From IMG/VR virus record IMGVR_UViG_2721755498_000004: a stretch of DNA of 55,363 bases. One strand, given 5' to 3'. The DNA is from a virus (lineage: Duplodnaviria; Heunggongvirae; Uroviricota; Caudoviricetes). The position numbers and the translations under genes are program-made. Numbering within the stretch: the first letter of the stretch is position 1; each line of letters opens with the position of its first letter. Below, piece by piece: positions 30,483-48,470 of the stretch. The notes beneath the pieces were generated by a model, which saw nothing but the letters and a program-made list of their open reading frames with translations, had not been told where the DNA came from and searched no databases.

Positions 30483-30947
30483 TTACTTTAAACACTGCTC
30501 GGTTATGTATTGCTGAGCACCTTCAAGTTGGGCCTGCATCATTACCAGTCGTTCCCGGAGGGTGAAATAATCCCGTTCAGCGGTGTCTGCCAGTCGGGGG
30601 GAGGCTGCATTATCCACGCCGGAGGCGGTGGTGGCTTCACGCACTGACTGACAGACTGCTTTGATGTGCAACCGACGACGACCAGCGGCAACATCATCAC
30701 GCAGAGCATCATTTTCAGCTTTCGCATCAGCTAACTCCTTCGTGTATTTTGCATCGAGCGCAGCAACATCACGCTGACGCATCTGCATGTCAGTAATTGC
30801 CGCGTTCGCCAGCTTCAGTTCTCTGGCATTTTTGTCGCGCTGGGCTTTGTAGGTAATGGCGTTATCACGGTAATGATTAACAGCCCATGACAGGCAGACG
30901 ACGATGCAGATAACCAGAGCGGAGATAATCGCGGTTACTCTGCTCAT
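30483..30947 (-). CDS. rzpR: i-spanin Rz
   Basis: 154 aa, near-identical to recalled lambda Rz ([15 protein letters not shown]...); follows the endolysin gene. Confidence 0.9.
30542..30727 (-). CDS. rzoR: o-spanin Rz1 (lipoprotein), embedded in Rz in the +1 frame
   Basis: 61 aa with lipobox LVVVGC and Pro-rich mature part, entirely inside Rz. Confidence 0.85.
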
Positions 30948-31420
30948 ACCTCAATCTCTCTGACCGTTCCGCCAGCTTCTTTGAATTTTGCAATCAGACT
31001 GTCAGCCTTATGCTCGAACTGACCATAACCAGCGCCCGGCAGTGAAGCCCATATATTGCTGCAACGGTCGATAGCCTGACGGATATCACCGCGATCAATC
31101 ATCGGCAAAGCGCCACGCTCTTTAATCTGCTGCAGCGCTACAGCATCCTGACTTTCTGGAGAAAAATCTTTCAGGCCAAGTTGCTTGCGGTAGGCATCCC
31201 ACCAGCGTGAAAGAAGCTGGTAACGTCCAGCGGCTGTTGATTTGAGTTTCGGATTTAGCGTGACAAGTTTGCGGGGGTGATCGGAGTAATCAGTGAACAG
31301 TCCGCCACCGACAATAACATCATAACCGTGATTTCTGGTTTTCTGCCGTCCGTTATCTGTTCCTTCTGACCATGCCACCATATCAAGGAAAGCTTTACGC
31401 TGGGAATTAAGTGTCTGCAT
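30944..31420 (-). CDS. R: endolysin, lambda R-type lytic transglycosylase
   Basis: 158 aa, near-identical to recalled lambda R (…[32 protein letters not shown]…). Confidence 0.9.
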
Positions 31421-31423
31421 TAA

Positions 31424-31765
31424 TTACTCCTTATGGGCACCGAACTTGTTACCGATGACCCTCATTGCCGCACCACGAATAGCATCAACACCAATCAGCC
31501 CCACCCCACCACCAATGGCAACAGAAAGTGATTTAGGCCATCCGACATACTCAAGCGCGGATGCAAAGGTCAGCGTCAGAGCACCACAAAGCAGAATCTC
31601 AAGCGTTTTTCGTTTCCAGCCGCCGCCACAGCCAAAATAGGCAATGCGCAAACCAGCCATAATAATTGACATAACCACTGCACCCAGCGGCGTATCTCCA
31701 CGCCACCAACTTTGTAAGAGTTCCAGTAAGTCAGGCCAGGAATGAGGGGCATTGTGCATTTTCAT
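31424..31765 (-). CDS. holin (class I-like) with dual-start motif
   Basis: Three predicted TM segments, directly upstream of the endolysin. ATG codons at 31765 and 31759 give MKMHN..., a Met-Lys-Met dual start like lambda S; GGAGG RBS upstream. Track start 31774 is GTG. Confidence 0.7.
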   Translation of the reverse strand: MKMHNAPHSWPDLLELLQSWWRGDTPLGAVVMSIIMAGLRIAYFGCGGGWKRKTLEILLCGALTLTFASALEYVGWPKSLSVAIGGGVGLIGVDAIRGAAMRVIGNKFGAHKE

Positions 31766-31861
31766 AAGCCTCACCTCCGAGAGTTCGGATGGTGCTAAGT
31801 GTAAGATTCAGGCTCTCAGGCTTGCTAACAAGAAGTCGAGGATGTTTCCGGAGCCTAACAA

Positions 31862-31888
31862 CGAAAAAGCCCCGGGACATGCCGGGGC
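31862..31888 (-). terminator. rho-independent terminator candidate after the Q-S moron
   Basis: 7-bp GC stem gccccgg/ccggggc with 6-nt loop, followed on the minus strand by UUUUU. Confidence 0.55.
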
Positions 31889-31982
31889 CAGATGGAGTGC
31901 CAGATTAAGCTTCTGGCGGTATATACTCGTGTTTGATATCGTTAAATCGCCAAAAGTAACAATTCAAACAAAGAGGATTTTT

Positions 31983-32144
31983 ATGTCTGAAAAAAACAAA
32001 CCACAAGGTGAAAATAAACCTCAGCAACCCGTGGCACCAAAACCAACTCCAACACAAAGTACTACAGACTTTGCTACACGTCGTGTTTTTGTTGGAGATT
32101 CTGCCGACTCAGTCATTGAACATATAAAAAAACAGCCGAGATAA
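31983..32144 (+). CDS. hypothetical small hydrophilic protein (53 aa, Pro/Gln-rich)
   Basis: Internal ATG of ORF 31752..32144 preceded by aaagagga RBS; convergent with, and overlapping by 32 nt, the 3' end of the membrane-protein gene. Confidence 0.35.
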   Translation: MSEKNKPQGENKPQQPVAPKPTPTQSTTDFATRRVFVGDSADSVIEHIKKQPR

Positions 32145-32682
32145 ACATCGCCGCTACCGGAGCAAGGATGGTATACATCCTTGCTTTATCGAGACTCGTG
32201 CGGATTTTCTCATTTTCCAACAGTAACTCTCTTGCTGTATCACTCAAGTCAACAAGGCGATACCTTCGTATAAGCGGCAATAACTTATCAGGTCCTAAAT
32301 ATCCTGCATCAGCGAATATTTTAAAGCTCGAGGGCTCCATATCCTTATATTTTTCATGATATAGATGATCAGGAGGGGCATTGATCAGGCCCCTAACCTT
32401 CACAGATAAACCAGTACATACCAAGTAAATAGCGCACCATGTCCATAGTAATGTAAATGTGGTAATTCCGGCGGTGAGAAAATCGAAATTAGTTTTCTGT
32501 GTCAGCAATAAAAAAGATGAACCAATTCCAACAATCTGAATGTTCAGAAGTTTGTATCCATTCTCAACATTGGTTTTGTTAGAAAGATGAATCTCTCGTA
32601 TCGTCTCTTCCCCTTGTTTTTCAAGATAATCGACGAGCTCATCATCTACTCCTAAAAAATAATCTTTAGGTAGTTCTCTCAT
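32113..32682 (-). CDS. uncharacterised membrane protein (189 aa, about 3 TM segments)
   Basis: AT-rich ORF between the Q-like gene and the holin; acidic N-terminus, two central TM helices, soluble segment, C-terminal TM helix. No family recognised. Confidence 0.55.
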   Translation of the reverse strand: MRELPKDYFLGVDDELVDYLEKQGEETIREIHLSNKTNVENGYKLLNIQIVGIGSSFLLLTQKTNFDFLTAGITTFTLLWTWCAIYLVCTGLSVKVRGLINAPPDHLYHEKYKDMEPSSFKIFADAGYLGPDKLLPLIRRYRLVDLSDTARELLLENEKIRTSLDKARMYTILAPVAAMFISAVFLYVQ

Positions 32683-32790
32683 CTCACCTCCACATCCTGT
32701 ACTGAAAACAATTTTACCAGAATGTCTCGATTCTAGGTATTCCGCCAGGAATCGCGCTCCAGAAATGAAACATCAGGTTCGCCAGTACCA

Positions 32791-32820
32791 GAAACAACAA
32801 AACCCGCTCAATGGCGGGTT
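32791..32820 (-). terminator. rho-independent terminator candidate downstream of Q (tR'-like position)
   Basis: Stem aacccgc/gcgggtt with 6-nt loop, followed on the minus strand by ttgttgttt. Confidence 0.45.
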
Positions 32821-32903
32821 CTGGTAAAGTTCATGCGCTTGGTTCGCCTCGCGATACAGCTTTGCGAAGCATACCGGAATTGAAGCAGTTTATGCGTAAA
32901 AAA

Positions 32904-33106
32904 TCAAGCTATTTTTTGAGCAAATGATTCTCGCATGGGAATATATAGGGCATACTCAGCAACAGCCAACCAATTAGCAATTCGCTTTTCGCATGTGCTA
33001 AAACACCACTCAGGATGTGCATCATTTAGCAATTCAGCCATTTTGCGCTTAGTCATCCCCCGTCCTTCATACCGTTGCCGGAGGACACTAATCAATCCAG
33101 GATGCT
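32904..33106 (-). pseudogene. late antiterminator Q-like protein, C-terminal fragment (gene split by IS3)
   Basis: The frame of ORF 32904..33122 reconnects exactly with the fragment at 34365..34707 once IS3 and one GCT copy are removed. Q identity is from position after the nin genes, not a recognised motif. Confidence 0.5.
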
Positions 33107-33171
33107 TGATCTTACCCAGCAATAGTGGACACGCGGCTAAGTGAGTAAACTCTCAGTCAGAGGTGACTCAC

Positions 33172-33471
33172 ATGACAAAAACAGTATCAACCAGTAAAAA
33201 ACCCCGTAAACAGCATTCGCCTGAATTTCGCAGTGAAGCCCTGAAGCTTGCTGAACGCATCGGTGTTACTGCCGCAGCCCGTGAACTCAGCCTGTATGAA
33301 TCACAACTCTACAACTGGCGCAGTAAACAGCAAAATCAGCAGACGTCTTCTGAACGTGAACTGGAGATGTCTACCGAGATTGCACGTCTCAAACGCCAGC
33401 TGGCAGAACGGGATGAAGAGCTGGCTATCCTCCAAAAGGCCGCGACATACTTCGCGAAGCGCCTGAAATGA
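33172..33471 (+). CDS. insE: IS3 transposase OrfA
   Basis: [32 protein letters not shown]... recognised as IS3 InsE; ATG 9 nt inside the track ORF, which starts at GTG 33163. Confidence 0.9.
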
Positions 33472-34334
33472 AGTATGTCTTTATTGAAAAACATCAGGCT
33501 GAGTTCAGCATCAAAGCAATGTGCCGCGTGCTCCGGGTGGCCCGCAGCGGCTGGTATACGTGGTGTCAGCGGCGGACAAGGATAAGCACGCGTCAGCAGT
33601 TCCGCCAACACTGCGACAGCGTTGTCCTCGCGGCTTTTACCCGGTCAAAACAGCGTTACGGTGCCCCACGCCTGACGGATGAACTGCGTGCTCAGGGTTA
33701 CCCCTTTAACGTAAAAACCGTGGCGGCAAGCCTGCGCCGTCAGGGACTGAGGGCAAAGGCCTCCCGGAAGTTCAGCCCGGTCAGCTACCGCGCACACGGC
33801 CTGCCTGTGTCAGAAAATCTGTTGGAGCAGGATTTTTACGCCAGTGGCCCGAACCAGAAGTGGGCAGGAGACATCACGTACTTACGTACAGATGAAGGCT
33901 GGCTGTATCTGGCAGTGGTCATTGACCTGTGGTCACGTGCCGTTATTGGCTGGTCAATGTCGCCACGCATGACGGCGCAACTGGCCTGCGATGCCCTGCA
34001 GATGGCGCTGTGGCGGCGTAAGAGGCCCCGGAACGTTATCGTTCACACGGACCGTGGAGGCCAGTACTGTTCAGCAGATTATCAGGCGCAACTGAAGCGG
34101 CATAATCTGCGTGGAAGTATGAGCGCAAAAGGTTGCTGCTACGATAATGCCTGCGTGGAAAGCTTCTTTCATTCGCTGAAAGTGGAATGTATCCATGGAG
34201 AACACTTTATCAGCCGGGAAATAATGCGGGCAACGGTGTTTAATTATATCGAATGTGATTACAATCGGTGGCGGCGGCACAGTTGGTGTGGCGGCCTCAG
34301 TCCGGAACAATTTGAAAACAAGAACCTCGCTTAG
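33468..34334 (+). CDS. insF: IS3 transposase OrfB (DDE domain)
   Basis: 288 aa, recognised as IS3 InsF; overlaps orfA as expected for the -1 frameshift fusion. Confidence 0.9.
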
Positions 34335-34364
34335 GCCTGTGTCCATATTACGTGGGTAGGATCA

Positions 34365-34707
34365 GCTCTGCCAGCACCTCACTTATGACTCTATCAATAC
34401 ATAACGCCTCTGCATCAGTACAATGCGCCAGCCAGGTCTTTTGCTTGCCATTGATCATCTCTCGCAAAAACGCTTCCAGCTCAGGTTTCTCTATTCCCGC
34501 TTTTTTCATCCTGCGCAGGGCTTCATTGACGGCTGTTTTCGTCAATTTTTTGGATGCCAGCAACTGGTTAAACATATTTCCCGTCTTACCGCCGCCAATA
34601 TACGACCAGCGCCCCCACATGCGCAGTTTTCCCTGAATCCAGACACTTTCCAGCGTGGTGAGACGAAGGTGTTCCCCGCTTTTGCCTGTATTTGTTGGGT
34701 AAATCAT
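34365..34707 (-). pseudogene. late antiterminator Q-like protein, N-terminal fragment (gene split by IS3)
   Basis: Start taken at ATG 34707 (MIYPTNTGKS..., AGGAAGG RBS, ATGA overlap with the upstream stop); the frame runs into IS3 and stops after 5 IS-encoded codons at 34348. Confidence 0.5.
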
Positions 34708-34994
34708 AAATAACCTTCCTTTCTCCAGATTTCTTGTGTGCGAAAAACACCTTCTGCATGCATCAGGCGTAATTCTTCTTTGGTGTAATCGCTGGTTTTT
34801 ACCCGCCCGTCGATTAAATCGTGGCATGAGCTACAGGCAATCGCTGCCTGCATATCGTGTGGTTTTGTCGCTGTTCCGCACGTCCCCGCCAGCCTGTAAT
34901 GCGCCAGCACAGAGGTTTCGGGATTGTGATTGCAGTAGCCAGGGATTCTGATCTGGCACATCTGGCCTTTAGCCGCTTTACGTAAATTCACCAT
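34704..34994 (-). CDS. DUF1364-family protein, YbcO-like
   Basis: 96 aa with Cys cluster (..CQIRIPGYCN..ETSVLAHYR..C...IACSSCHD..) resembling recalled DLP12 YbcO; nin-region position. Confidence 0.7.
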   Translation of the reverse strand: MVNLRKAAKGQMCQIRIPGYCNHNPETSVLAHYRLAGTCGTATKPHDMQAAIACSSCHDLIDGRVKTSDYTKEELRLMHAEGVFRTQEIWRKEGYL

Positions 34995-35593
34995 TACGCA
35001 AACTCCAGTAGTTGTGCGGCCACATTTTCAACTTCCTCCTGAGAGGAGAATTTACGGAACAGAATCCAGTTCCACAGCACATTCAGAACAGATTTATAAA
35101 CCTGCTGAAACTCGGTTTCGTCCATATTCGCAAACGCGATGGATTTCGCCCTGCGCCCACGGCTACCGTCCGGATAAATATGCTCGGTGTAAAATCCGGC
35201 CTGAATGGTTACCCACTCGCGGAAAGCCTCAAACGACTTTAGCAATGCCGTATCCCGAGTTCTGCGTGTCGCAACTGTATTTAGATATTGCTCTGCGGCA
35301 TCACTCAGGGCTGGTGTGTGTTCCCGACCAACTGATTCGCACAAGTAATCCACGAAACCAGACAGCAGTTCTCGTTCGCGAGGTGTGATCGCCCCACCGA
35401 CCGGAGTCCAGTAATCGAATCCCAGTTGCAGGAGTTTGAAAAAACGCTTGTGGAATGCGTAGTTACGCACACGCTTAAAGTCTGCGTGTATCCACTCACC
35501 TATTTTGATTTGATGCAGAAAATCGCAACTCTCCGGCGTCGCCGGGAGAAGTAAACCAGAAGAGGTTTGTTTGACCAGTTGTATATGCGCCAT
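34994..35593 (-). CDS. nin-region protein (DUF1367-like)
   Basis: 199 aa immediately upstream of the YbcO-like gene; family assignment is from weak recall. Confidence 0.45.
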   Translation of the reverse strand: MAHIQLVKQTSSGLLLPATPESCDFLHQIKIGEWIHADFKRVRNYAFHKRFFKLLQLGFDYWTPVGGAITPRERELLSGFVDYLCESVGREHTPALSDAAEQYLNTVATRRTRDTALLKSFEAFREWVTIQAGFYTEHIYPDGSRGRRAKSIAFANMDETEFQQVYKSVLNVLWNWILFRKFSSQEEVENVAAQLLEFA

Positions 35594-37468: not shown

Positions 37469-38668
37469 ATGCCATTTGTTATTTATGTGTTTACTATCAG
37501 TGCCTTTGCGCTCGGACTCGCGGAATTTGTCCCCATTGGGCTGACAGACGTTATGGCTCAGGGGTTGTGTGTGGGTGTGGAGCAGACCGGGGCAGCGGTT
37601 ACAACCTATGCACTGGGGGCAACGTTCGCGGCACCCGTACTGTCTGCGCTGACAGCAAGCTGGAGCCGGAAAAATGTAATGCTTACAACTGCCGTTGTGT
37701 TTACTGCCGGTAGTCTGGCGGCCGCGTTTGCAGCCACATTACCTCAGCTCCTGTTAGCGCGGTTCATTGCTGGTCTGGGACACGGCCTGTTTCTGGCTGC
37801 GGCATCCAGTACCGCAGCTCGTCTTGCTGGACCGGGTAAAGCAGGCAGAGCGGTGGCTGTGGTATTTGGTGGCTTTACTCTGGCGATGGCAATCGGCGTA
37901 CCGCTGAGTACATGGTTGGGGGGGGTGGTCTCATGGCGTCCAGTTCTCGGCGCTATTGCCGCTTTTGGCGCGTTCGGATTCCTTGGACTGTTGTTCGGTA
38001 TGAAAGATCCCGTACGCAGCGTGCCCGGTGAACATAGTGACTCAGCAATGCAGAATATCGGCATGCTGTTTAACCGTAAGTTGCTGGCCGGCGCGCTGGT
38101 TACGGTGCTGGCGTATGCAGGCTCGTTTACGGCTTACACCTTTATCGCACCTATTCTGACGCAGGTGACAGGGGTTACCGGAGCAACGGTGAGTCTGTTT
38201 ATGCTGGTTTACGGTATTACAGCTGCGGTAGGTAATATTCTTGGTGGGAAACTTACCGACAGCATGGGGGTTAATCGTGCCAATATACTCATCATTAGCG
38301 GCATTGTTGTTGTCGTGCTTGGTATGTGGCTGCTGTCATCCTCACCGGTGAGCATGGGCATTCTGGTTGCGCTGCTGGGTATGGTGACATTTGCCGCAGT
38401 GCCGGCACTGCAGGCCCGTCTGATTGGTGTCGCTGAGCAACATGCTCCTCATGCGCATGGTGTTGCTGCCGGCCTGAATATTGCGGGCTTCAACTCAGGT
38501 ATAGCGCTGGGATCAGTACTGGGCAGCATTACTATAAGCCACGCCGGTATCGTGTATACCGGTATCAGCGGTGCGATTGTTTCTCTGCTCGGCCTGCTGT
38601 TGCTGCTTGCACAAATCCGTCGCAGCCACAGTCGTAAATTTCAACAGGTTAAAATCGTAGGCCAGTAA
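37469..38668 (+). CDS. MFS transporter (12-TM)
   Basis: 399 aa, hydrophobic throughout, Gly/Ala-rich helices typical of major-facilitator permeases; GC-rich relative to phage genes. Confidence 0.8.
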   Translation: MPFVIYVFTISAFALGLAEFVPIGLTDVMAQGLCVGVEQTGAAVTTYALGATFAAPVLSALTASWSRKNVMLTTAVVFTAGSLAAAFAATLPQLLLARFIAGLGHGLFLAAASSTAARLAGPGKAGRAVAVVFGGFTLAMAIGVPLSTWLGGVVSWRPVLGAIAAFGAFGFLGLLFGMKDPVRSVPGEHSDSAMQNIGMLFNRKLLAGALVTVLAYAGSFTAYTFIAPILTQVTGVTGATVSLFMLVYGITAAVGNILGGKLTDSMGVNRANILIISGIVVVVLGMWLLSSSPVSMGILVALLGMVTFAAVPALQARLIGVAEQHAPHAHGVAAGLNIAGFNSGIALGSVLGSITISHAGIVYTGISGAIVSLLGLLLLLAQIRRSHSRKFQQVKIVGQ

Positions 38669-38679
38669 AGGGAGGTTAT

Positions 38680-39372
38680 ATGCTTACCCGTGAAAATATG
38701 CTTAATGGCACATTTGTCAGGGTGCATGAAGCGCTGCTCCCGGCGAATATGCTCTGGGACGCTGAAAAAATACGCGCATCAATGAACTCTACTCTGGAGG
38801 AGCGCCCGACGGGTGCTCCTGTCTGGATATTTGCCTACGGGTCATTGATGTGGAATCCCGTGCTGGCGATTGAAGAAATGCAACGGGCCCGTCTGAAAGG
38901 ATGGCAGCGCAGTTTCTGCATTCGTTTGATATCCGGACGAGCGACTCCTGATGTCCCCGGCAGGATGTTATCGCTCGACGAAGGTGGAATTACCGAAGGT
39001 ATTGCGTTCAGACTGCCGGAATCGACTCTTATTAATGAGCTGGAAATTGTCTGGACGCGCGAGATGATAACCGGTCTTTACCGTCCGGTCTGGGCAGACG
39101 TTTCGCTAGGAAACGGTGAGGAAATTCAGGCGCTGGCTTTCGTATCAGACAGACTGCATCCGCATTATGAACAGGACAATCTTACAGCGACCGTAGCGTT
39201 GAGCATCGCATCTGCCCGTGGAGACATTGGCACGAATGCAGATTATGTATGGAAACTGCAGGCCACTCTGGGTGCGTTGGGAATACGGGATGATTACGTG
39301 AGTGAACTGGCCCTTGCTCTGCATGAGGCTCCCTGTAACGATAAACTTCATCAGCGAGGCGCTTCACTATGA
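38680..39372 (+). CDS. ChaC-like gamma-glutamylcyclotransferase family protein
   Basis: 230 aa with YGSLMWNP motif, collinear with recalled E. coli ChaC; 11 bp after the MFS gene. Confidence 0.7.
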   Translation: MLTRENMLNGTFVRVHEALLPANMLWDAEKIRASMNSTLEERPTGAPVWIFAYGSLMWNPVLAIEEMQRARLKGWQRSFCIRLISGRATPDVPGRMLSLDEGGITEGIAFRLPESTLINELEIVWTREMITGLYRPVWADVSLGNGEEIQALAFVSDRLHPHYEQDNLTATVALSIASARGDIGTNADYVWKLQATLGALGIRDDYVSELALALHEAPCNDKLHQRGASL

Positions 39373-40250
39373 GCCATCTGAGCCATCTGCGAACGTTTCT
39401 TGAGGCCTATCGCTCTGGCTCCTTTTCAAAGGCGGCAGAACTACTGGGCATCACTCAGCCCGCGGCGTCACAGCATATCCAGTCTCTTGAGACTCTGGTT
39501 GGTAAGCGTCTGTTTATCAGGCAGGCCAGAGGCGTGACGGCAACCGAAGCTGCGGATGAGCTTGCCCGCTCAGTTTCACCCTTCATTGATGGTCTGGAAG
39601 AAAAGCTGTCCTCTTTCCGGTCAGGCTCTGTACGCGGGGGAACAATTAATCTGGCAGGACCGCCAGATTTTATTCATTCCCGGCTTGGGACAGTAATGGC
39701 TCCACTAATGAAGGAGGGGTATCGCCTACGCTTTCATACCGGCAATAAGCAACGTATTTATTCCCTTTTGCATGACGGGAGCGCCGATCTCGCTGTTACC
39801 GCATCTATGCCTGATGACCGTCTGTACGGCTATGCACATCTACTGACTGAACGCATGCTCCTTGTTCATGCTCCCGCCATGTCAGAGATCATCGGATCAG
39901 AACCTGGTGCTGAAACGCTTGCCTCATTACCGCTGATTGCTTATGACGAAGAGTTGCCACTGATTAGAGCGCTCTGGGCCTCCATGTTTCAGAGAGCCCC
40001 TGAGATGCAGGCTACATTCACCATTCCGGATTTACGTATTATCCGCGACTTGGTCTGTGACGGCCACGGGTGGACAGTGCTGCCGGATTATCACTGTGAC
40101 AATGACCTGAAAAGTGGTCGCCTGATTTCAGTGACACCTGCAGACCTCGCTCCGACTAATCATCTTTATCTGGTCTGGAACAAAAGGACGGCTAATAACA
40201 GCCGAACCGCCTATGTTCGGGATTACATTCTTAAAACGTTTCCGCGTTGA
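39369..40250 (+). CDS. LysR-family transcriptional regulator
   Basis: 293 aa; N-terminal HTH (..FSKAAELLGITQPAASQHIQSLE..) and LysR-type substrate-binding domain; 4-bp overlap with the ChaC-like gene. Confidence 0.85.
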   Translation: MSHLSHLRTFLEAYRSGSFSKAAELLGITQPAASQHIQSLETLVGKRLFIRQARGVTATEAADELARSVSPFIDGLEEKLSSFRSGSVRGGTINLAGPPDFIHSRLGTVMAPLMKEGYRLRFHTGNKQRIYSLLHDGSADLAVTASMPDDRLYGYAHLLTERMLLVHAPAMSEIIGSEPGAETLASLPLIAYDEELPLIRALWASMFQRAPEMQATFTIPDLRIIRDLVCDGHGWTVLPDYHCDNDLKSGRLISVTPADLAPTNHLYLVWNKRTANNSRTAYVRDYILKTFPR

Positions 40251-40380
40251 TGTTTGAAACGGATGATTGGCGATGCGTATCATAAGTTACGTATGTCCGC
40301 TTCTGGCACAAAGCAGACGCCCACTCTCACGCGAATGCTTTGCCCTTGACTTGCCAACAACCGTATCGCTTGCTCCGCAA

Positions 40381-41673
40381 CTATGGTTTTTTATTAGAAT
40401 CTTCGCCACTAAATAAATTATAATAAATTGATTTTATTAGATATCTGTCAGAATCTATATGGTCAGCACGAGTAGCATGCTCTAATGTTTCAAATGCCAG
40501 AGTATGTGCGGCTTCAGCAAATATCCCAGGCCAACCCTTACTCAGCATCGACAGTCCTTTAAGTACCCTTATCTGAATTTCCCTCATACTGGCACCATCG
40601 CGCGCAACAGGTGAGAAAAAGTCTTCAAGTAGATCGTTATTCTGAAGTGGTGCAACATGTACAGAAGGATATTTCACTTCTATTTCATCAGATTTATTCT
40701 GCGCGTAAGCGGAAAGTATACGTACACCTCTGCCAATGACATCAATGGCGGTTCCAGGATCGTTCACTGCGGGGGAAAGGGCTCGGCAGGCTATTTCGGC
40801 CATGACGCTAAGACAAAATCGGGGGTCCTGAGCAAATGAACGTACATCCGAGACAATAATCGTCTCAAGTAAATCGGTGCTGATTGATGACTCCTGGCCC
40901 TGACTCAGGTACAAAACTGGCGTGGACGGATGTATGAAACTGCCCGGCTGCGCCACGAGGTATACATGACGGGGATCATTGGTCAGCAGCTTGCTGAGTT
41001 TCACCATATCAACATATTCAACATAGCCAATCTTTTTCGGATAAACTGCAACCGTTCCTTTCGGCTGTTCATTGTTCTCAAGCCATGGATATCCGCCGAG
41101 ACAGGGATTTCTTGCTCTCGCAATAAATGTTTCGATGGCCGCCTGTTCTACTTTTGCCGTTGTCTCACCAACCCTCCCCAGAGAGGTCAAATGCTGTATC
41201 CAGCGAAGCAATGTGATGAGGATTAAGGCAATGACAACCAGTGTTACAATGAATAAAATGACTCTCCCCCTTTCTCCATAAGCTCCCATATTGAGGGCAA
41301 TAATCCCTACCAGACTGAAGAGAAAAGAACCGATGAAGGTGGCCAGTACATTTTGTGTGGTGACGTCTTCAACAACTAAACGAGTAGCTCTGGGAGTCAC
41401 ATTAGTAGTGGCTGAACCGTAGGCTGTGACCATGATGCTCAGCGAAAATGTGGTCACTGCCAGCATACTCGATGCCAGTATGTTCAGAATGTTATCGACT
41501 GCTTCCGCACCAACCTTCACGGAAACCGACTCAGGTATCATTGATTTAAAAAGAATTGATAAAAGGGCCGTTATTATTGCGACAATTGCGAATAACGTTG
41601 CCCTGAACCATAGTTTTTTAAATGTCTGCTTCAGCATCCATTTCCAGCGTGAAATCATTCTGCATTCCCTCAT
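40381..41673 (-). CDS. DUF2254-like membrane protein
   Basis: 430 aa; N-terminal block of about 4 TM helices and a large soluble C-terminal domain. Family name from recall. Confidence 0.5.
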   Translation of the reverse strand: MRECRMISRWKWMLKQTFKKLWFRATLFAIVAIITALLSILFKSMIPESVSVKVGAEAVDNILNILASSMLAVTTFSLSIMVTAYGSATTNVTPRATRLVVEDVTTQNVLATFIGSFLFSLVGIIALNMGAYGERGRVILFIVTLVVIALILITLLRWIQHLTSLGRVGETTAKVEQAAIETFIARARNPCLGGYPWLENNEQPKGTVAVYPKKIGYVEYVDMVKLSKLLTNDPRHVYLVAQPGSFIHPSTPVLYLSQGQESSISTDLLETIIVSDVRSFAQDPRFCLSVMAEIACRALSPAVNDPGTAIDVIGRGVRILSAYAQNKSDEIEVKYPSVHVAPLQNNDLLEDFFSPVARDGASMREIQIRVLKGLSMLSKGWPGIFAEAAHTLAFETLEHATRADHIDSDRYLIKSIYYNLFSGEDSNKKP

Positions 41674-41685
41674 ATTGCAGCCGGG

Positions 41686-41714
41686 ATAAATAAATGCCGC
41701 CTCTGTGGCGGCAT
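41686..41714 (-). terminator. rho-independent terminator candidate after the BCCT gene
   Basis: Stem atgccgcc/ggcggcat with 5-nt loop, followed on the minus strand by ttatttat; between the BCCT stop and the DUF2254 start. Confidence 0.5.
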
Positions 41715-41721
41715 GTTGCTG

Positions 41722-43725
41722 TTAACGAACCAGATGCAGGAAGTGCAGGTGTTTTTCGTACTGGTCCAGTATGTCATTAATCAGCTGTTCCTGATTCCAG
41801 CCCATTACATCATAATTTTGGCCGCCCTCTTTGAGATAGACTTCAGCGCGATAATATCGATGTTGTTCACTCTGCTGCTCATCATTATCCAGCGCAGCGA
41901 GCGCGAAGGTCGGTGAGTTATACCCGCGAAGCCTCACTTCATATATATAATTCAGCTCGTTGCCCAAATCGACTTCAAGGCGAATACGATCCTCGGCGGC
42001 GTCACTGATGTGGCTTATCGTTCCCTGCTTGTTAAGTTCCTCCTGAACCAGCGTCATGGCGGGTTGGATAATGTCGTCCATAAAACGTTTCACAAGAGAG
42101 CGCTTCGGCAAATACGCGATATTGCGTAACCTTCTCTGCCAGGGAATTGGGTTACGTGCAGCCGTAGGAGCAATAGTCGCCATGCTAAGGCTTTCACGCT
42201 TGGTTAAATCCCGACGCAGGGCTTTTAACAGTCCGTATATGGATATTAATAAGATAACTGAGAAGGGCAATGCACTCGCTATCGTTACGGTTTGCAACGC
42301 ACTCAGCCCCCCTGCGATCAGCAGGGCAATAGCAACAACGCCCATGAGCGATGCCCAGAAAATTCGCTGCCAGACGGGCGTGTTTGCCACCCCACCTGAT
42401 GCCAGAGTATCCACAACCATTGCCCCCGAATCAGCAGACGTTACAAAGAAGACGATGACCATCGCCATTGCAATGAATGACAGCACGGAAGAGAACGGGA
42501 AATGCTCCAGGAAATTAAACAGGGCAAGCGCAACATCCTGCTGAACGGTATTGGCGAGGTCAGTGGCGCCCTGGTTCATGATGAGATAGATGGCGCTGTT
42601 TCCAAACACCGTCATCCACATGAGCGTAAAGCCGGCGGGAACAAACAACACGCCAGTCACGAACTCACGAATTGTCCTGCCGCGGGAAACGCGTGCAATG
42701 AACATACCTACAAACGGCGACCATGAAAGCCACCATCCCCAGTATAATAATGTCCAGCCCCCCAGCCAGTTGCTCGACTTGGGTTCATACGCGTAAAGGT
42801 TGAACGTTTTACTCACCAGTTCCGACAGATAACCACCCGTATTTTCCACAAATGACTTCAGCAGAAGCACAGTGGGACCCAGGCACAAGACCAGCGCCAG
42901 GAGCAACACCGCCAGGCCCAGATTAAGCTCAGACAGGATGCGTATTCCCTTGTCCAGGCCGGACACCACCGAAATCGTCGCTAACCCCGTGATGACCACG
43001 ATCAAAATGACCTGTACCGTTTCATTGATGGGCACGCCGAAAAGATGGTTCAAACCGGCATTCACCTGCAATACACCGTAACCCAGCGATGTTGCAACGC
43101 CAAAGACAGTGCCTATCACGGCGAAGATATCAACCGCGTGGCCTATAGGCCCGTAAATGCGATCGCCGATAATGGGATAGAGCGCAGAACGCAGCGTTAA
43201 AGGCAGACCGTGACGGTAACTGAAAAAGGCCAGAATCAGCGCCACGATGGCATAAATTGCCCATGCGTGCAGACCCCAGTGGAAGAACGTCAGGCGCATG
43301 GCTTCCTTCGCTGCCGCAACGGTCTCTGGAGTGCCGACAGGTGGCGAAAGATAATGCATCACAGGTTCGGCAACGCCAAAGAACATCAGGCCGATCCCCA
43401 TCCCTGCCGAAAAAAGCATCGCGAACCAGGAGTGGTAGCTGAAATCAGGCTGCGCATGGTCTGGGCCCAGCTTTATATCACCGTAACGTGAGAGTCCAAG
43501 GAACGTGACGCTCAGTAAAATCAGGGCCACAGCAAGTATGTAGAACCAGCTGGCATTCGTGAAGATTTGTTGCTGAAGTAGTTTAAAATTTTTGTCGGCG
43601 ACATCCGGGAATACGGCGGCAAAGGCGACAAGAAGGAAAATTAGCAAAGCAGATGTAAAGAATACCGCTTTGTTAATCTGGCTTGTAGACTTCTTTGGGG
43701 TTGTATCATTTTCACTCATAATCAT
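41722..43725 (-). CDS. BCCT-family transporter (BetT-like)
   Basis: 667 aa; 12-TM core with Trp-rich segment (WTLLYWGWWLSWSPFVGMFIARVSRGRTIREF) typical of BCCT carriers, plus a long cytoplasmic C-terminal extension as in BetT. Confidence 0.85.
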   Translation of the reverse strand: MIMSENDTTPKKSTSQINKAVFFTSALLIFLLVAFAAVFPDVADKNFKLLQQQIFTNASWFYILAVALILLSVTFLGLSRYGDIKLGPDHAQPDFSYHSWFAMLFSAGMGIGLMFFGVAEPVMHYLSPPVGTPETVAAAKEAMRLTFFHWGLHAWAIYAIVALILAFFSYRHGLPLTLRSALYPIIGDRIYGPIGHAVDIFAVIGTVFGVATSLGYGVLQVNAGLNHLFGVPINETVQVILIVVITGLATISVVSGLDKGIRILSELNLGLAVLLLALVLCLGPTVLLLKSFVENTGGYLSELVSKTFNLYAYEPKSSNWLGGWTLLYWGWWLSWSPFVGMFIARVSRGRTIREFVTGVLFVPAGFTLMWMTVFGNSAIYLIMNQGATDLANTVQQDVALALFNFLEHFPFSSVLSFIAMAMVIVFFVTSADSGAMVVDTLASGGVANTPVWQRIFWASLMGVVAIALLIAGGLSALQTVTIASALPFSVILLISIYGLLKALRRDLTKRESLSMATIAPTAARNPIPWQRRLRNIAYLPKRSLVKRFMDDIIQPAMTLVQEELNKQGTISHISDAAEDRIRLEVDLGNELNYIYEVRLRGYNSPTFALAALDNDEQQSEQHRYYRAEVYLKEGGQNYDVMGWNQEQLINDILDQYEKHLHFLHLVR

Positions 43726-45664: not shown

Positions 45665-46090
45665 TCAATGCACAGCCACAATATTTCCTGCAGGGCCACC
45701 ACGATTCATCTGGTTGAAACCAGCGATCGCCACTGCGACAAAATCATCAGCGTCTCTCACCAGTCGTTCCCGCGTCTCCACTAGTTCCCGAAAATAGGCT
45801 GAGCTATGGCTGCGCATTCGGGCCACCAGCAGAGGTGGCATTGCTTTTTCGATAGCTGGTAACAACGCCTGAATTTTTTCAACTGCATCAGGGGTGTCTT
45901 TCTCTACCCAGCGGAAAATTTTCTGGGTATTGCGAGCCAGGGCTTCCGGATGGCTGTCGTCATACAGTTCTGGGAACGTCATACCCAGTTCAAAATAAGC
46001 CCTGGTTATTTCAGCTGCCGGAACTTTTTCACCGTCCGGATGCGCCCAGGCATTCATCGCCATGCGGATGTGTTCATGCTTGATTTTCAT
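45665..46090 (-). CDS. early-region protein in the YdaT position (141 aa)
   Basis: Second gene of the rightward-early-like operon after the Cro-like gene; size matches K-12 YdaT (140 aa). Identity by synteny only. Confidence 0.45.
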   Translation of the reverse strand: MKIKHEHIRMAMNAWAHPDGEKVPAAEITRAYFELGMTFPELYDDSHPEALARNTQKIFRWVEKDTPDAVEKIQALLPAIEKAMPPLLVARMRSHSSAYFRELVETRERLVRDADDFVAVAIAGFNQMNRGGPAGNIVAVH

Positions 46091-47274: not shown

Positions 47275-47430
47275 ATGCAAAAAATCGACCTCGGCAACAA
47301 CGAATCCCTGGTGTGCGGCGTGTTCCCCAACCAGGATGGAACGTTCACTGCCATGACGTATACCAAAAGCAAAACATTTAAAACCGAAACTGGTGCGCGC
47401 CGATGGTTGGAGAAGCACACAGTAAGCTAA
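47275..47430 (+). CDS. ydaF: small protein YdaF-like (51 aa)
   Basis: Hand-found ORF (MQKIDLGNNESLVCGVFPNQDGTFTAMTYTKSK...) 10 bp after ydaG; size and position match K-12 ydaF. Confidence 0.5.
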   Translation: MQKIDLGNNESLVCGVFPNQDGTFTAMTYTKSKTFKTETGARRWLEKHTVS

Positions 47431-47915
47431 CGATTAAAACGTCTACTCCTGCTGTTCCAGAATAACTTCATAAAATGGGAGTATTTTTCGGTGACGAGAT
47501 AATAAGAACAGTTTGCGCTATCACTCTGATGTTGAATGATGCCCTTCCGTTCTAATTTTTTCATAACCGGGTTACGGCAAGGAGAAGTGATAATAAGATT
47601 TCCTGTTTTAAGGAAATCTTTAAATACAGCGATTTCTTTCTCAGATAAACGAAGCAATACTCGTTGCTCTGGTAGTAATGAATAATGCTTTTGAATATGT
47701 GCTCGCAATCTTGAGAAGGAAATGGCGACCACGAAAGAAAAGGCAAAAACGATAATCTGAAAGAGCCAAGGTATTTCAGTATAAGCATTGAATGCGACAG
47801 TAAACTCTTTCGGTATCAGCCAGAGAGTGAGACCAAAAATGATAATCGTATACATAAGTCTTTCGAGTGGCTCGTTAGCAAAAAGTTTCAACAATGGAGT
47901 AAATACATCCAACAT
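47427..47915 (-). CDS. sieB: superinfection exclusion protein B
   Basis: Hydrophobic N-terminal half with basic C-terminus; 162 aa from MLDVFTPLLK (track ORF starts 5 codons earlier at 47930); position in the immunity region as in Rac. Confidence 0.7.
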   Translation of the reverse strand: MLDVFTPLLKLFANEPLERLMYTIIIFGLTLWLIPKEFTVAFNAYTEIPWLFQIIVFAFSFVVAISFSRLRAHIQKHYSLLPEQRVLLRLSEKEIAVFKDFLKTGNLIITSPCRNPVMKKLERKGIIQHQSDSANCSYYLVTEKYSHFMKLFWNSRSRRFNR

Positions 47916-47966
47916 ATCAATAACTCTCAACTGTAAGGGTATTGAAATGTTGGTAATGACTCCAAC

Positions 47967-48470
47967 TTATTGATAGTGTTTTATGTTCAGATAATGCCCG
48001 ATGACTTTGTCATGCAGCTCCACCGATTTTGAGAACGACAGCGACTTCCGTCCCAGCCGTGCCAGGTGCTGCCTCAGATTCAGGTTATGCCGCTCAATTC
48101 GCTGCGTATATCGCTTGCTGATTACGTGCAGCTTTCCCTTCAGGCGGGATTCATACAGCGGCCAGCCATCCGTCATCCATATCACCACGTCAAAGGGTGA
48201 CAGCAGGCTCATAAGACGCCCCAGCGTCGCCATAGTGCGTTCACCGAATACGTGCGCAACAACCGTCTTCCGGAGCCTGTCATACGCGTAAAACAGCCAG
48301 CGCTGGCGCGATTTAGCCCCGACGTATCCCCACTGTTCGTCCATTTCCGCGCAGACGATGACGTCACTGCCCGGCTGTATGCGCGAGGTTACCGACTGCG
48401 GCCTGAGTTTTTTAAGTGACGTAAAATCGTGTTGAGGCCAACGCCCATAATGCGGGCTGTTGCCCGGCAT
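47967..48470 (-). CDS. insB: IS1 transposase InsB
   Basis: 167 aa recognised as IS1 InsB. Confidence 0.9.

Follow-up and report, generated by a model that had tools for sequence, protein, structure and literature searches.

A convergent gene pair encoding a membrane protein and a small protein partner in the Q-to-holin interval of lambdoid prophages

Introduction

Lambdoid prophages carry accessory genes, known as morons, at an insertion site by the late promoter pR' (Juhala et al. 2000, as cited in PMC4104026), for example, stx in Stx phages and cspB/cspF in Qin. In prophages of enterohaemorrhagic Escherichia coli (EHEC), the moron insertion site lies downstream of pR' and contains Stx2, followed by the convergent small RNAs (sRNAs) STnc100 and AsxR (Tree et al. 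2014, PMC4104026), and the site just upstream of the holin gene is home to antisense sRNAs and convergent sRNA pairs (PMC4104026; Zhu et al. 2026 preprint). As the gap that carries Shiga toxin and regulatory sRNAs, the Q-to-holin interval is a place where a new recurrent class of cargo bears on prophage-driven change of the host. Here, we describe such a cargo in a Rac-like lambdoid prophage of E. coli, represented by a stretch of 55,363 nucleotides (IMG/VR virus record IMGVR_UViG_2721755498_000004; hereafter, the window) whose late genes lie on the minus strand. Between the gene for a Q-like antiterminator and the holin gene, the window contains a minus-strand gene for a 189-aa inner-membrane protein and, converging on it, a plus-strand gene for a 53-aa protein. 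Our preferred, though tentative, reading is that the pair is a self-restrained prophage module for phage exclusion or abortive infection, in which a membrane effector would be held in check by the small protein and an antisense RNA.

The cassette resembles the lambdoid morons of the pR' site in its position between Q/pR'-tR' and the lysis genes, its foreign base composition, its flanking terminators, and its swapping between otherwise differing phages. It differs from them in the cargo itself, a convergent and overlapping pair of genes, one of which runs against the late operon on a shared leader. The AsxR/AgvB and STnc100/PasD pairs of EHEC and enteropathogenic E. coli (EPEC) prophages likewise place an antisense unit directly upstream of the holin region and have transcription converging where the moron site ends on its 3' side, but the antisense unit described here codes for a conserved protein, and its sequence overlaps that of another protein-coding gene.

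Convergent 3' overlaps are also a feature of type I toxin-antitoxin pairs such as TxpA/RatA and BsrG/SR4 of B. subtilis, whose toxins are typically shorter than 60 aa. Those pairs, like ours, are located in prophages and have, as ours would have, the 3' end of a membrane gene under a convergent transcript that ends in a stable hairpin. Our gene layout and antisense-strand hairpin fit a putative antisense RNA of this class, which may pair with the mRNA of a possibly toxic membrane protein. However, the membrane protein here is 189 aa long with large cytoplasmic parts, and the antisense unit encodes a protein (ratio of non-synonymous to synonymous substitution rates, dN/dS, 0.26) rather than being a non-coding RNA. 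A further parallel is the OOP RNA of lambda, a non-coding RNA antisense to the 3' end of cII that regulates the choice between lysis and lysogeny. OOP is likewise a short transcript that converges on a phage gene, covers its 3' end, and could bring about its cleavage, but it is non-coding and has no sequence relation to the cassette. Lastly, inner-membrane exclusion proteins of the prophage kind include SieB, P22 SieA, T4 Imm, HK97 gp15, and RexB. The 189-aa protein is also small inner-membrane prophage cargo, and distant relatives of it occupy a sieB/rex-type spot beside the repressor gene, yet homology to the exclusion proteins is not detectable: there is no Pfam hit, and kinship with SieB (PF14163) was rejected at an hhalign probability of 0.1% against the window's own SieB (47430-47930). 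We know of no convergent small-protein partner for any of SieB, SieA, Imm, gp15, or RexB. Cargo at the pR' moron site and an antisense-coupled, toxin-like layout are therefore known already; seemingly undescribed are the protein family, the antisense partner that encodes a protein, the hairpin within the gene, and the shared leader.

Results

The membrane gene and the small ORF form one conserved module

The elements of the cassette are as follows.

32113-32682, minus strand: inner-membrane protein gene, 189 aa, phrog_11870; ATG start with GGAGG 4 nt upstream
31983-32144, plus strand: Pro/Gln/Lys-rich small protein gene, 53 aa, phrog_14506; GAGGA 5 nt before the ATG
32159-32187, plus strand: conserved RNA hairpin, 11-12 bp, 15 nt past the stop codon of the small open reading frame (ORF), within the membrane coding sequence
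31934-31969, plus strand: leader block TGATATCGTTAAATCGCCAAAAGTAAC..., 36 nt, before the ribosome-binding site of the small ORF

A preliminary description of the window, made from its letters alone, had proposed a moron encoding a minus-strand membrane protein of 189 aa and, converging on it, a plus-strand ORF of 53 aa with a good ribosome-binding site and a 32-nt overlap. The membrane ORF is present exactly as given there, the small ORF is preceded by GAGGA, and the two 3' ends do overlap by 32 nt (32113-32144). Both genes are real; what needs to be revised is the standing of the small ORF, which is not an incidental neighbor but half of a two-gene module.

Several lines of evidence carry this conclusion. 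First, in all intact relatives that we looked at, from Leclercia, Klebsiella, Trabulsiella, Serratia, Yersinia, Morganella, Proteus, and Pantoea, the membrane gene meets a convergent ORF of 46-55 aa at its 3' end, and the two overlap by 20-32 nt. Second, outside the overlap, differences in the small ORF concentrate at third codon positions, and the median dN/dS is 0.26 in frame versus 1.3-1.5 in the other two frames. Judged by this pattern, the small gene is a genuine gene under purifying selection at the protein level. Its consensus reads MS[EQ]xNKP..E.KPQ..P..KP.P....DF[AST]x[RK]RvFVGDSA[DE]...KK.K, with a conserved C-terminal motif F-x-x-[RK]-R-V-F-V-G-D-S-A-[DE]. The longer annotated versions of the ORF (71-130 aa) are unsupported because the stretch upstream is conserved as DNA but lies in different frames. 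Third, the association extends to remote relatives: in Gilliamella, where the membrane protein is at 32% identity, its partner is a 26-aa version (..PKPVPRFVGNE..KKK), and a version of 60-odd aa (MSNEKQPDKP...FDSVDS) lies beside a 27%-identical homolog in a metagenomic phage, where the pair adjoins cI/cro. Pro-rich convergent ORFs also occur in Burkholderia and at other distant loci but are too divergent to be called homologous. On these comparative grounds, the membrane gene and the small ORF make up a single conserved two-gene module, whose members remain linked even where the membrane protein has fallen to 27-32% identity and where the pair occupies other genomic positions.

The pairing has exceptions. 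In a Salmonella variant, represented by a cluster of 88 sequences, the membrane gene looks intact but the small ORF is missing, and at one further locus an insertion sequence (IS) has replaced the small ORF. Conversely, two loci keep a truncated small ORF with no membrane gene, and in a Leclercia case a frameshift disrupts the membrane gene next to an intact small ORF. The last case, where one gene has decayed beside an intact partner, together with a toxin-antidote-like layout and the movement of the pair between phages, would suit a selfish addiction module that does nothing but stabilize the prophage segment; its membrane toxin would be stable, and its antidote, either the small protein or the RNA, would be labile. 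We consider this improbable, since a variant that lacks the small gene exists. It also overlaps with the exclusion reading that we prefer, as prophage-borne toxin-antidote modules in many cases act in phage defense.

A conserved hairpin is selected on the RNA of the small-gene strand

The hairpin at 32159-32187 covers codons ~166-175 of the membrane gene (K-A-R-M-Y-T-I-L-A-P). It was found in every relative, including Gilliamella, and appears in both minimum free energy and centroid folds. Among 27 distinct sequences, pairing is maintained in 94.4% of alignment cells; six of the 12 pairs show changes on both sides, amounting to 44 cells, and no shuffle equaled the observed covariation. When the partner was slid by 1-3 columns as a control, pairing dropped to ~50%. 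The compensatory changes bring correlated amino-acid replacements in the membrane protein (A...A versus V...T). To ask which strand the structure serves, we compared the two possible RNAs: read on the small-ORF strand, 306/324 cells are paired, with 63 G.U pairs, whereas on the membrane-mRNA strand only 249/324 are paired, with 6 G.U pairs. This asymmetry in G.U pairs (63 versus 6) indicates that the hairpin is selected on RNA transcribed in the direction of the small ORF, and we suggest that it is the likely 3' end, or a stabilizer, of the small-ORF transcript.

The consequences for the two transcripts are reciprocal. An RNA of the small gene that runs to the end of the hairpin would be complementary to the final 26 codons of the membrane gene, and the membrane mRNA, which must reach the terminator at 31868, is antisense to the whole small gene. 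The preliminary description had suggested antisense control from the convergent overlap, an idea that the conserved hairpin on the antisense strand now backs; as far as comparative evidence goes, it supports antisense coupling as a conserved design and not an accident of overlap.

A conserved hairpin at the 3' end and a conserved, C/A-rich leader, at a site known for antisense sRNAs and convergent sRNA pairs (PMC4104026; Zhu et al. 2026 preprint), might instead mean that the plus-strand product is mainly a regulatory RNA, i.e., a dual-function, trans-acting sRNA like AsxR or AgvB whose overlap with the membrane gene is incidental. We give this explanation little credence. The ORF is clearly under purifying selection at the protein level; among loci that bear the leader block, truncated remnants excepted, the small gene never occurs without the membrane gene; and the hairpin has no U-tract of the Hfq-binding type. 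Furthermore, covariance models of Rfam for AsxR, AgvB, and STnc100 (RF02703, RF02702, and RF02076) gave no match at E up to 1 in positions 31300-33300, although the same search finds AsxR (88 bits) and STnc100 (208 bits) in the Sakai prophage Sp5, which served as the positive control.

The cassette lies at a moron site and is bounded by terminators

The interval that houses the cassette contains these further elements, with the holin gene at its border.

31868-31889, minus strand: intrinsic terminator from a terminator scan, GC stem and T-run, tail to ~31858, just upstream of the holin gene
32798-32823, minus strand: tR'-like intrinsic terminator from the same scan, between Q and the membrane gene
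32940-32969, minus strand: candidate pR'-like late promoter from a consensus scan, TTGGCT, 18 nt, TATATT, inside the end of Q
32711-32725, minus strand: motif CATTCTGGTAAAAT (consensus CATTCAGGTAAAAT), which includes a -10-like TAAAAT 36-42 nt before the membrane gene start
31897-31925, plus strand: weak, tentative promoter candidate for the small ORF found by eye, GTGCCA, 17 nt, TATATA, 8/12 consensus matches
31424-31774, minus strand: lambda-type holin gene (Pfam Phage_holin_3_1), a neighbor and not a member of the cassette

From the stop codon of Q to the start of the holin gene (32903 down to 31775), the interval measures 1129 nt, in agreement with the ~1.1 kb estimated earlier. It had also been called AT-rich, which holds in relative terms: the G+C content is 42.2% in the interval and 38.8% in the membrane gene, compared to 51% in the holin gene, 49.5% in the lysozyme gene, and 48.3% in the window as a whole. 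The pair has the foreign composition and the flanking terminators of a moron, and the slot that had been likened to that of Shiga toxin is indeed the known moron insertion site downstream of pR'. The terminator that had been assigned to the membrane gene as its own does exist on that strand, with a GC stem, but it is a boundary element of the site. It lies 225 nt past the membrane gene stop codon, beyond the entire small ORF and the leader; an equivalent hairpin with an A-run occupies this position in most related loci; and it is also present, together with the holin gene, in prophages bearing other cargo. We therefore regard it as the conserved right-hand boundary of the site and not the property of the membrane gene alone. 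The tR'-like terminator on the other side was not mentioned in the preliminary description; a GC hairpin with a T-run is found at this position, too, in most related loci. The scan by itself found two terminators against 1.9 expected from shuffles, so it is the conservation across genera, and not the scan, that lends the observation its weight.

By analogy with lambdoid late operons, the promoter-like site at 32940-32969 and the terminator at 32798-32823 would constitute a pR'-tR' arrangement. A promoter-like site at the end of Q with a terminator ~110-135 nt downstream would give a short pR'-tR' RNA. Lambda 6S RNA and StxS of Stx phages are analogs of such an RNA.

Promoters within the cassette are less clear. 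A consensus scan found none for the membrane gene and none for the small ORF. Most distinct cassettes have the CATTCAGGTAAAAT motif, over a range of protein identity from 100% to 50%, and it usually follows the terminator. Its TAAAAT lacks a -35 element, was not called in the scan, and is absent from the Morganella and Pantoea versions; the motif is a possible promoter (-10 element) of the membrane gene or an element or signal in its 5' untranslated region (UTR). On the opposite strand, the candidate at 31897-31925 contains an inverted repeat GCCAGA..TCTGGC (31899-31917), of which the TCTGGC arm is conserved. The arms of this repeat co-vary in relatives (CCAGA/TCTGG to CCAGT/ACTGG). Read on the late strand, the repeat and the terminator at 31868-31889 make two successive stem-loops ending in a U-run, a shape that resembles an Hfq-type sRNA or a 3' UTR-derived RNA and has no Rfam match.

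The cassette is mobile and its distant relatives have other neighbors

In all close relatives, the pair lies between Q and the holin gene, but the flanking genes are not constant. It occurs behind three unrelated Q families (DUF1133, PF06530, and PF06323) and before lambda-type, phage-21-type, or unclassified holins (PF05106 and PF04971 among them), while in relatives (loci L038, L087, and L066) other cargo lies between the same Q and holin genes. There is no fixed link to one type of lysis cassette, and distant members lie away from lysis genes. At least 80% of the interval is present in 222 of 5426 complete E. coli genomes, and ~10 other genera have the cassette as well; among phage records, just 7 give any match to the interval. 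Strain ET846 and phage vB_EcoS-473R12 have intact copies, and K-12 lacks the cassette. It is thus a common cassette, yet both of its proteins are annotated merely as hypothetical. From this distribution, we conclude that the pair is accessory cargo that moves horizontally as a cassette and here occupies the moron site of the late operon.

One of the phage matches comes from a different order. In the Actinobacillus phage vB_Apl-pPE4 (PP818812.1, 16418-17366; Pasteurellaceae host), the 5' half of the membrane gene and its upstream region match at 71% nucleotide identity, and the leader block matches at 97%. The cassette, by these matches, seems to cross bacterial orders.

We placed seven distant homologs of the membrane protein in their genomic context. 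Two adjoin a lysogeny repressor gene (L142 and L149). In L142, the small ORF follows cI on the same strand, in the manner in which rexAB follows cI in lambda, and this co-orientation with the repressor gene fits a gene expressed in the lysogen. Another homolog is inside the tail module of a Burkholderia prophage (L145). A fourth (L148, 5001-10464) lies beside a fused E2/E1/JAB protein that matches CBASS-type models and a WYL/BrxR-type regulator, with a 397-aa protein that has a weak LmuA match; this neighborhood is likely a defense island. In L143, from a GC-rich organism, the homolog is preceded by a candidate Q-like gene and followed by an HNH gene, and the remaining two (L147 and L152) are in ordinary chromosomal surroundings. 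Taken at face value, these contexts favor an accessory or defense role over that of a lysis accessory, with the caveat that, as only seven distant homologs were examined, the argument from defense context is anecdotal.

These observations bear on the main rival to our reading, namely that the membrane protein performs a late function of the phage itself in the lytic cycle, such as lysis timing, preparation of the inner membrane, or a block on superinfection during lytic growth, and that the antisense small gene does nothing more than silence it in lysogens. Across ~10 genera, the membrane gene is always co-oriented with the late operon and sits between tR' and the holin gene; the Morganella and Pantoea versions leave no room for a promoter of their own; and the small gene faces late transcription, so that it would be overrun on induction. 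Set against this are the unrelated holin families that accompany the cassette, the distant homologs next to cI, in a tail module, in the chromosome, and beside a defense island, and the failure to match any holin, antiholin, or spanin family in Pfam or PHROGs. Most lambdoid phages also do without the cassette, given the small number of matching phage records and its presence in 222 of 5426 E. coli genomes. Finally, the holin of the window already has a dual-start antiholin. We judge a late function to be unlikely on balance. A narrower version of it, in which the membrane protein is an antiholin, was set aside because unrelated holins travel along with the cassette, homologs are found outside lysis regions, and the holin has a dual start of its own. 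The start of this holin (MRLMKMHNAP, of which MRLMKM is at 31757-31774) has a Met-Lys-Met dual-start motif, and in lambda S, a Met-Lys-Met dual start lets one gene produce both antiholin and holin.

The membrane protein defines a family with a conserved, predicted cytoplasmic helix

The three transmembrane segments of the preliminary description are borne out by hydropathy and by modeling. On the Kyte-Doolittle scale, two segments are strongly hydrophobic (residues 76-94 and 170-188), and a third is moderately so (45-62, mean ~1.4 by hand sum). An AlphaFold2 model built with 43 homologs (pLDDT 83.7) has three helices, two of them very long (14-62 and 134-188) and one shorter (68-92), the weak segment 45-62 being the membrane end of a long helix. 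Applying the positive-inside rule, we predict a topology with three membrane helices and the N terminus inside, such that the acidic N-terminal helix and residues 93-168 would be cytoplasmic.

Homologs have a near-constant length of ~189 aa, reach down to ~42% identity, and are all annotated as hypothetical; their genera include Escherichia, Klebsiella, Citrobacter, Enterobacter, Salmonella, Serratia, Yersinia, Pantoea, Morganella, Proteus, Providencia, Sodalis, and others. When 1.84 billion representatives were searched with a profile, only ~100 clusters came up, all of 150-250 aa. Among close homologs, 24 columns are invariant; they include acidic and polar positions in the N-terminal helix (E21, E25, S34, N38, and E40), a GIGSS motif of the first membrane helix, and the residues P104 and R140.

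Searches for known relatives of either protein were negative or uninformative. Neither the membrane nor the small protein matched Pfam or NCBIfam, and neither matched the PADLOC 2.0 defense models at E up to 1. Sequence searches of the Protein Data Bank (PDB) with both proteins found no solved structure, a 49-member distant alignment found nothing in Pfam, NCBIfam, PADLOC, or PDB, and fold searches with the membrane protein returned generic helical bundles only. In PHROGs, both proteins fall into families of unknown function (phrog_11870 and phrog_14506), and a literature search on the RefSeq accession found no paper. The preliminary description had named homology to a routine lysis accessory such as an antiholin as the result that would overturn a cargo role; the remote-homology searches that it called for gave no holin, antiholin, or other lysis family.

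The same features inform a further possibility, that the pair is lysogenic-conversion cargo unconnected with defense, for instance, a factor in membrane stress, transport, or fitness that the small protein regulates. The moron architecture and foreign composition would agree with this, as would the ordinary chromosomal contexts of two distant homologs (L147 and L152) and the many unrelated genes of unknown function that occupy the same site. However, the membrane protein has no transporter-like or enzyme-like features and, according to hydropathy and the AlphaFold2 model, very little periplasmic exposure, and a tight antisense brake is more typical of a harmful product. We regard such a role as quite unlikely.

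A leader block is shared among unrelated cargo

The most conserved sequence in the interval is not a coding sequence but the C/A-rich leader block upstream of the small ORF. We collected leader-block loci (L022-L141, in addition to 31934-31969 of the window) and analyzed 108 copies for downstream ORFs; a 17-mer of the leader is present in at least 120 viral (IMG/VR) contigs. In 106 of the 108 copies, a Shine-Dalgarno sequence and a start codon follow 46-53 nt downstream, and the ORFs belong to 12 unrelated families, among them the 53-aa small protein, a 67-aa zinc-ribbon protein, a DUF2441 protein, and a 92-99-aa family. These ORFs are oriented opposite to the late operon. Where flanks with a recognizable holin were available, the block lies ~160 nt from the holin start, with the holin gene on the opposite strand. 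Two other types of cargo that we examined (L087, L041, L093, and L110) are convergent pairs as well, all uncharacterized: one consists of a 92-99-aa protein and a 61-87-aa ORF, and the other of a DUF2441-like protein of ~179 aa and a 71-118-aa ORF. Convergent pairing may be a general feature of the hot spot. Judging from the variety of genes behind it, the leader looks like a common expression platform at which lambdoid phages swap antisense-oriented cargo genes, and its sequence TGATATYGTTAAATCGC offers a simple handle for mining further ones.

RNAalifold predicted no structure in an ungapped alignment of the leader block. Its flanks show weak covariation, with one covarying position by a crude count. 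This hints that the flank stem may belong to the late-strand RNA instead.

A self-restrained membrane effector is a tentative model for the pair

How might the two genes work together? We propose that, in the lysogen, the small gene would be transcribed from the conserved leader against the late operon, as a ~260-nt RNA ending at the hairpin. This RNA would pair with the 3' end and 3' UTR of the membrane mRNA, made from a weak promoter of its own or by read-through of tR', and would thereby keep the membrane protein low. In addition, the small protein may bind the membrane protein at its conserved acidic helix on the cytoplasmic side. On induction, Q would fire pR', transcription would overrun both terminators and the promoter of the small gene, and the membrane protein would accumulate. 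Acting on the inner membrane, it would exclude phages or abort their infection, as a toxin-like effector with a built-in antidote.

We favor this exclusion or abortive-infection model on account of genomic context, the brake on expression, and the independence of the cassette from any one holin or Q. Two further facts were counted in its favor: the holin already has an M-K-M antiholin start, and in Leclercia the small ORF has outlasted a frameshifted membrane gene. The layout (a protein-coding antisense RNA, a hairpin within a coding sequence, and proposed release by late antitermination) offers a testable coupling of a membrane effector to the lytic switch.

Several observations weigh on the other side. 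Neither protein family could be tied to a known defense, exclusion, or toxin family (Pfam, NCBIfam, PADLOC, PDB, and the SieB profile), and the defense-island context is a single locus. The Salmonella variant that lacks the small ORF argues against an obligatory antidote. At the level of RNA, the hairpin has no good U-tract, so that it may terminate transcription or may instead protect a processed end, and neither the consensus scan nor reading by eye produced a convincing sigma-70 promoter for the small gene. The Morganella and Pantoea membrane genes start straight after tR' with no promoter-like motif, and such versions may be purely late genes serving the phage; a function in lytic growth would likewise be compatible with the place of the membrane gene at the head of the late genes in ~10 genera.

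A broader claim is that the pair is the founding member of an undescribed, widespread two-component exclusion or abortive-infection system of Gammaproteobacteria and beyond, in which one convergent gene restrains the three-helix effector at two levels, through the Pro-rich small protein and through an mRNA with the antisense hairpin, and Q releases it, with the leader maybe serving as a general platform. We hold this broader claim to be doubtful. If the pair were a true defense system, it would add a family that current defense catalogs miss.

The Q gene of the window prophage is split by IS3

The late-strand order around the cassette is DUF1367, DUF1364, the DUF1133 Q-like antiterminator, the interval, holin, lysozyme, Rz/Rz1, and trkG. 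The neighboring genes, apart from the holin gene given above, are located as follows.

34994-35593, minus strand: DUF1367, upstream in late-gene order
34704-34994, minus strand: DUF1364, after DUF1367 and before Q
34365-34707, minus strand: N-terminal two-thirds of the Q-like antiterminator (codons 1-114; Pfam DUF1133 model positions 1-114)
33107-34364, plus strand: IS3, 1258 bp, with a 3-bp target duplication AGC; contains orfA and orfB
32904-33106, minus strand: C-terminal third of the Q-like gene (DUF1133 model positions 114-175; PHROG 'anti-termination protein Q-like')
30944-31420, minus strand: lysozyme, downstream of the holin gene

The gene ending at 32904 had been read as Q-like. It is a Q homolog (DUF1133), but this part is only the C-terminal third, as an IS3 element cuts off the rest. 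In the otherwise identical region of strain ET846 (L001), the Q gene is uninterrupted and the two parts are contiguous; alignment to this intact gene gave the IS3 junctions, and the element is annotated as IS3 in E. coli genomes. The late operon of the window prophage should therefore be impossible to switch on via Q. With Q split, only Q-independent expression of the cassette is left possible in this prophage.

A block of non-phage cargo inside the prophage, at 37469-43725, encodes an MFS transporter, a ChaC-like protein, a LysR regulator, a DUF2254 membrane protein, and a BCCT betaine/choline transporter, and is entered through a very AT-rich stretch at 35.5-36 kb (31-38% GC). At the corresponding place, ET846 has genes for DUF1971, SIR2, nucleoside triphosphate pyrophosphatase, and adenosine deaminase instead; this difference in cargo points to a second variable cargo site. 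The sieB gene of the prophage (PF14163) adjoins an IS1 transposase gene, within 47430-48470, and a YdaT-toxin-domain protein is encoded at 45668-46090.

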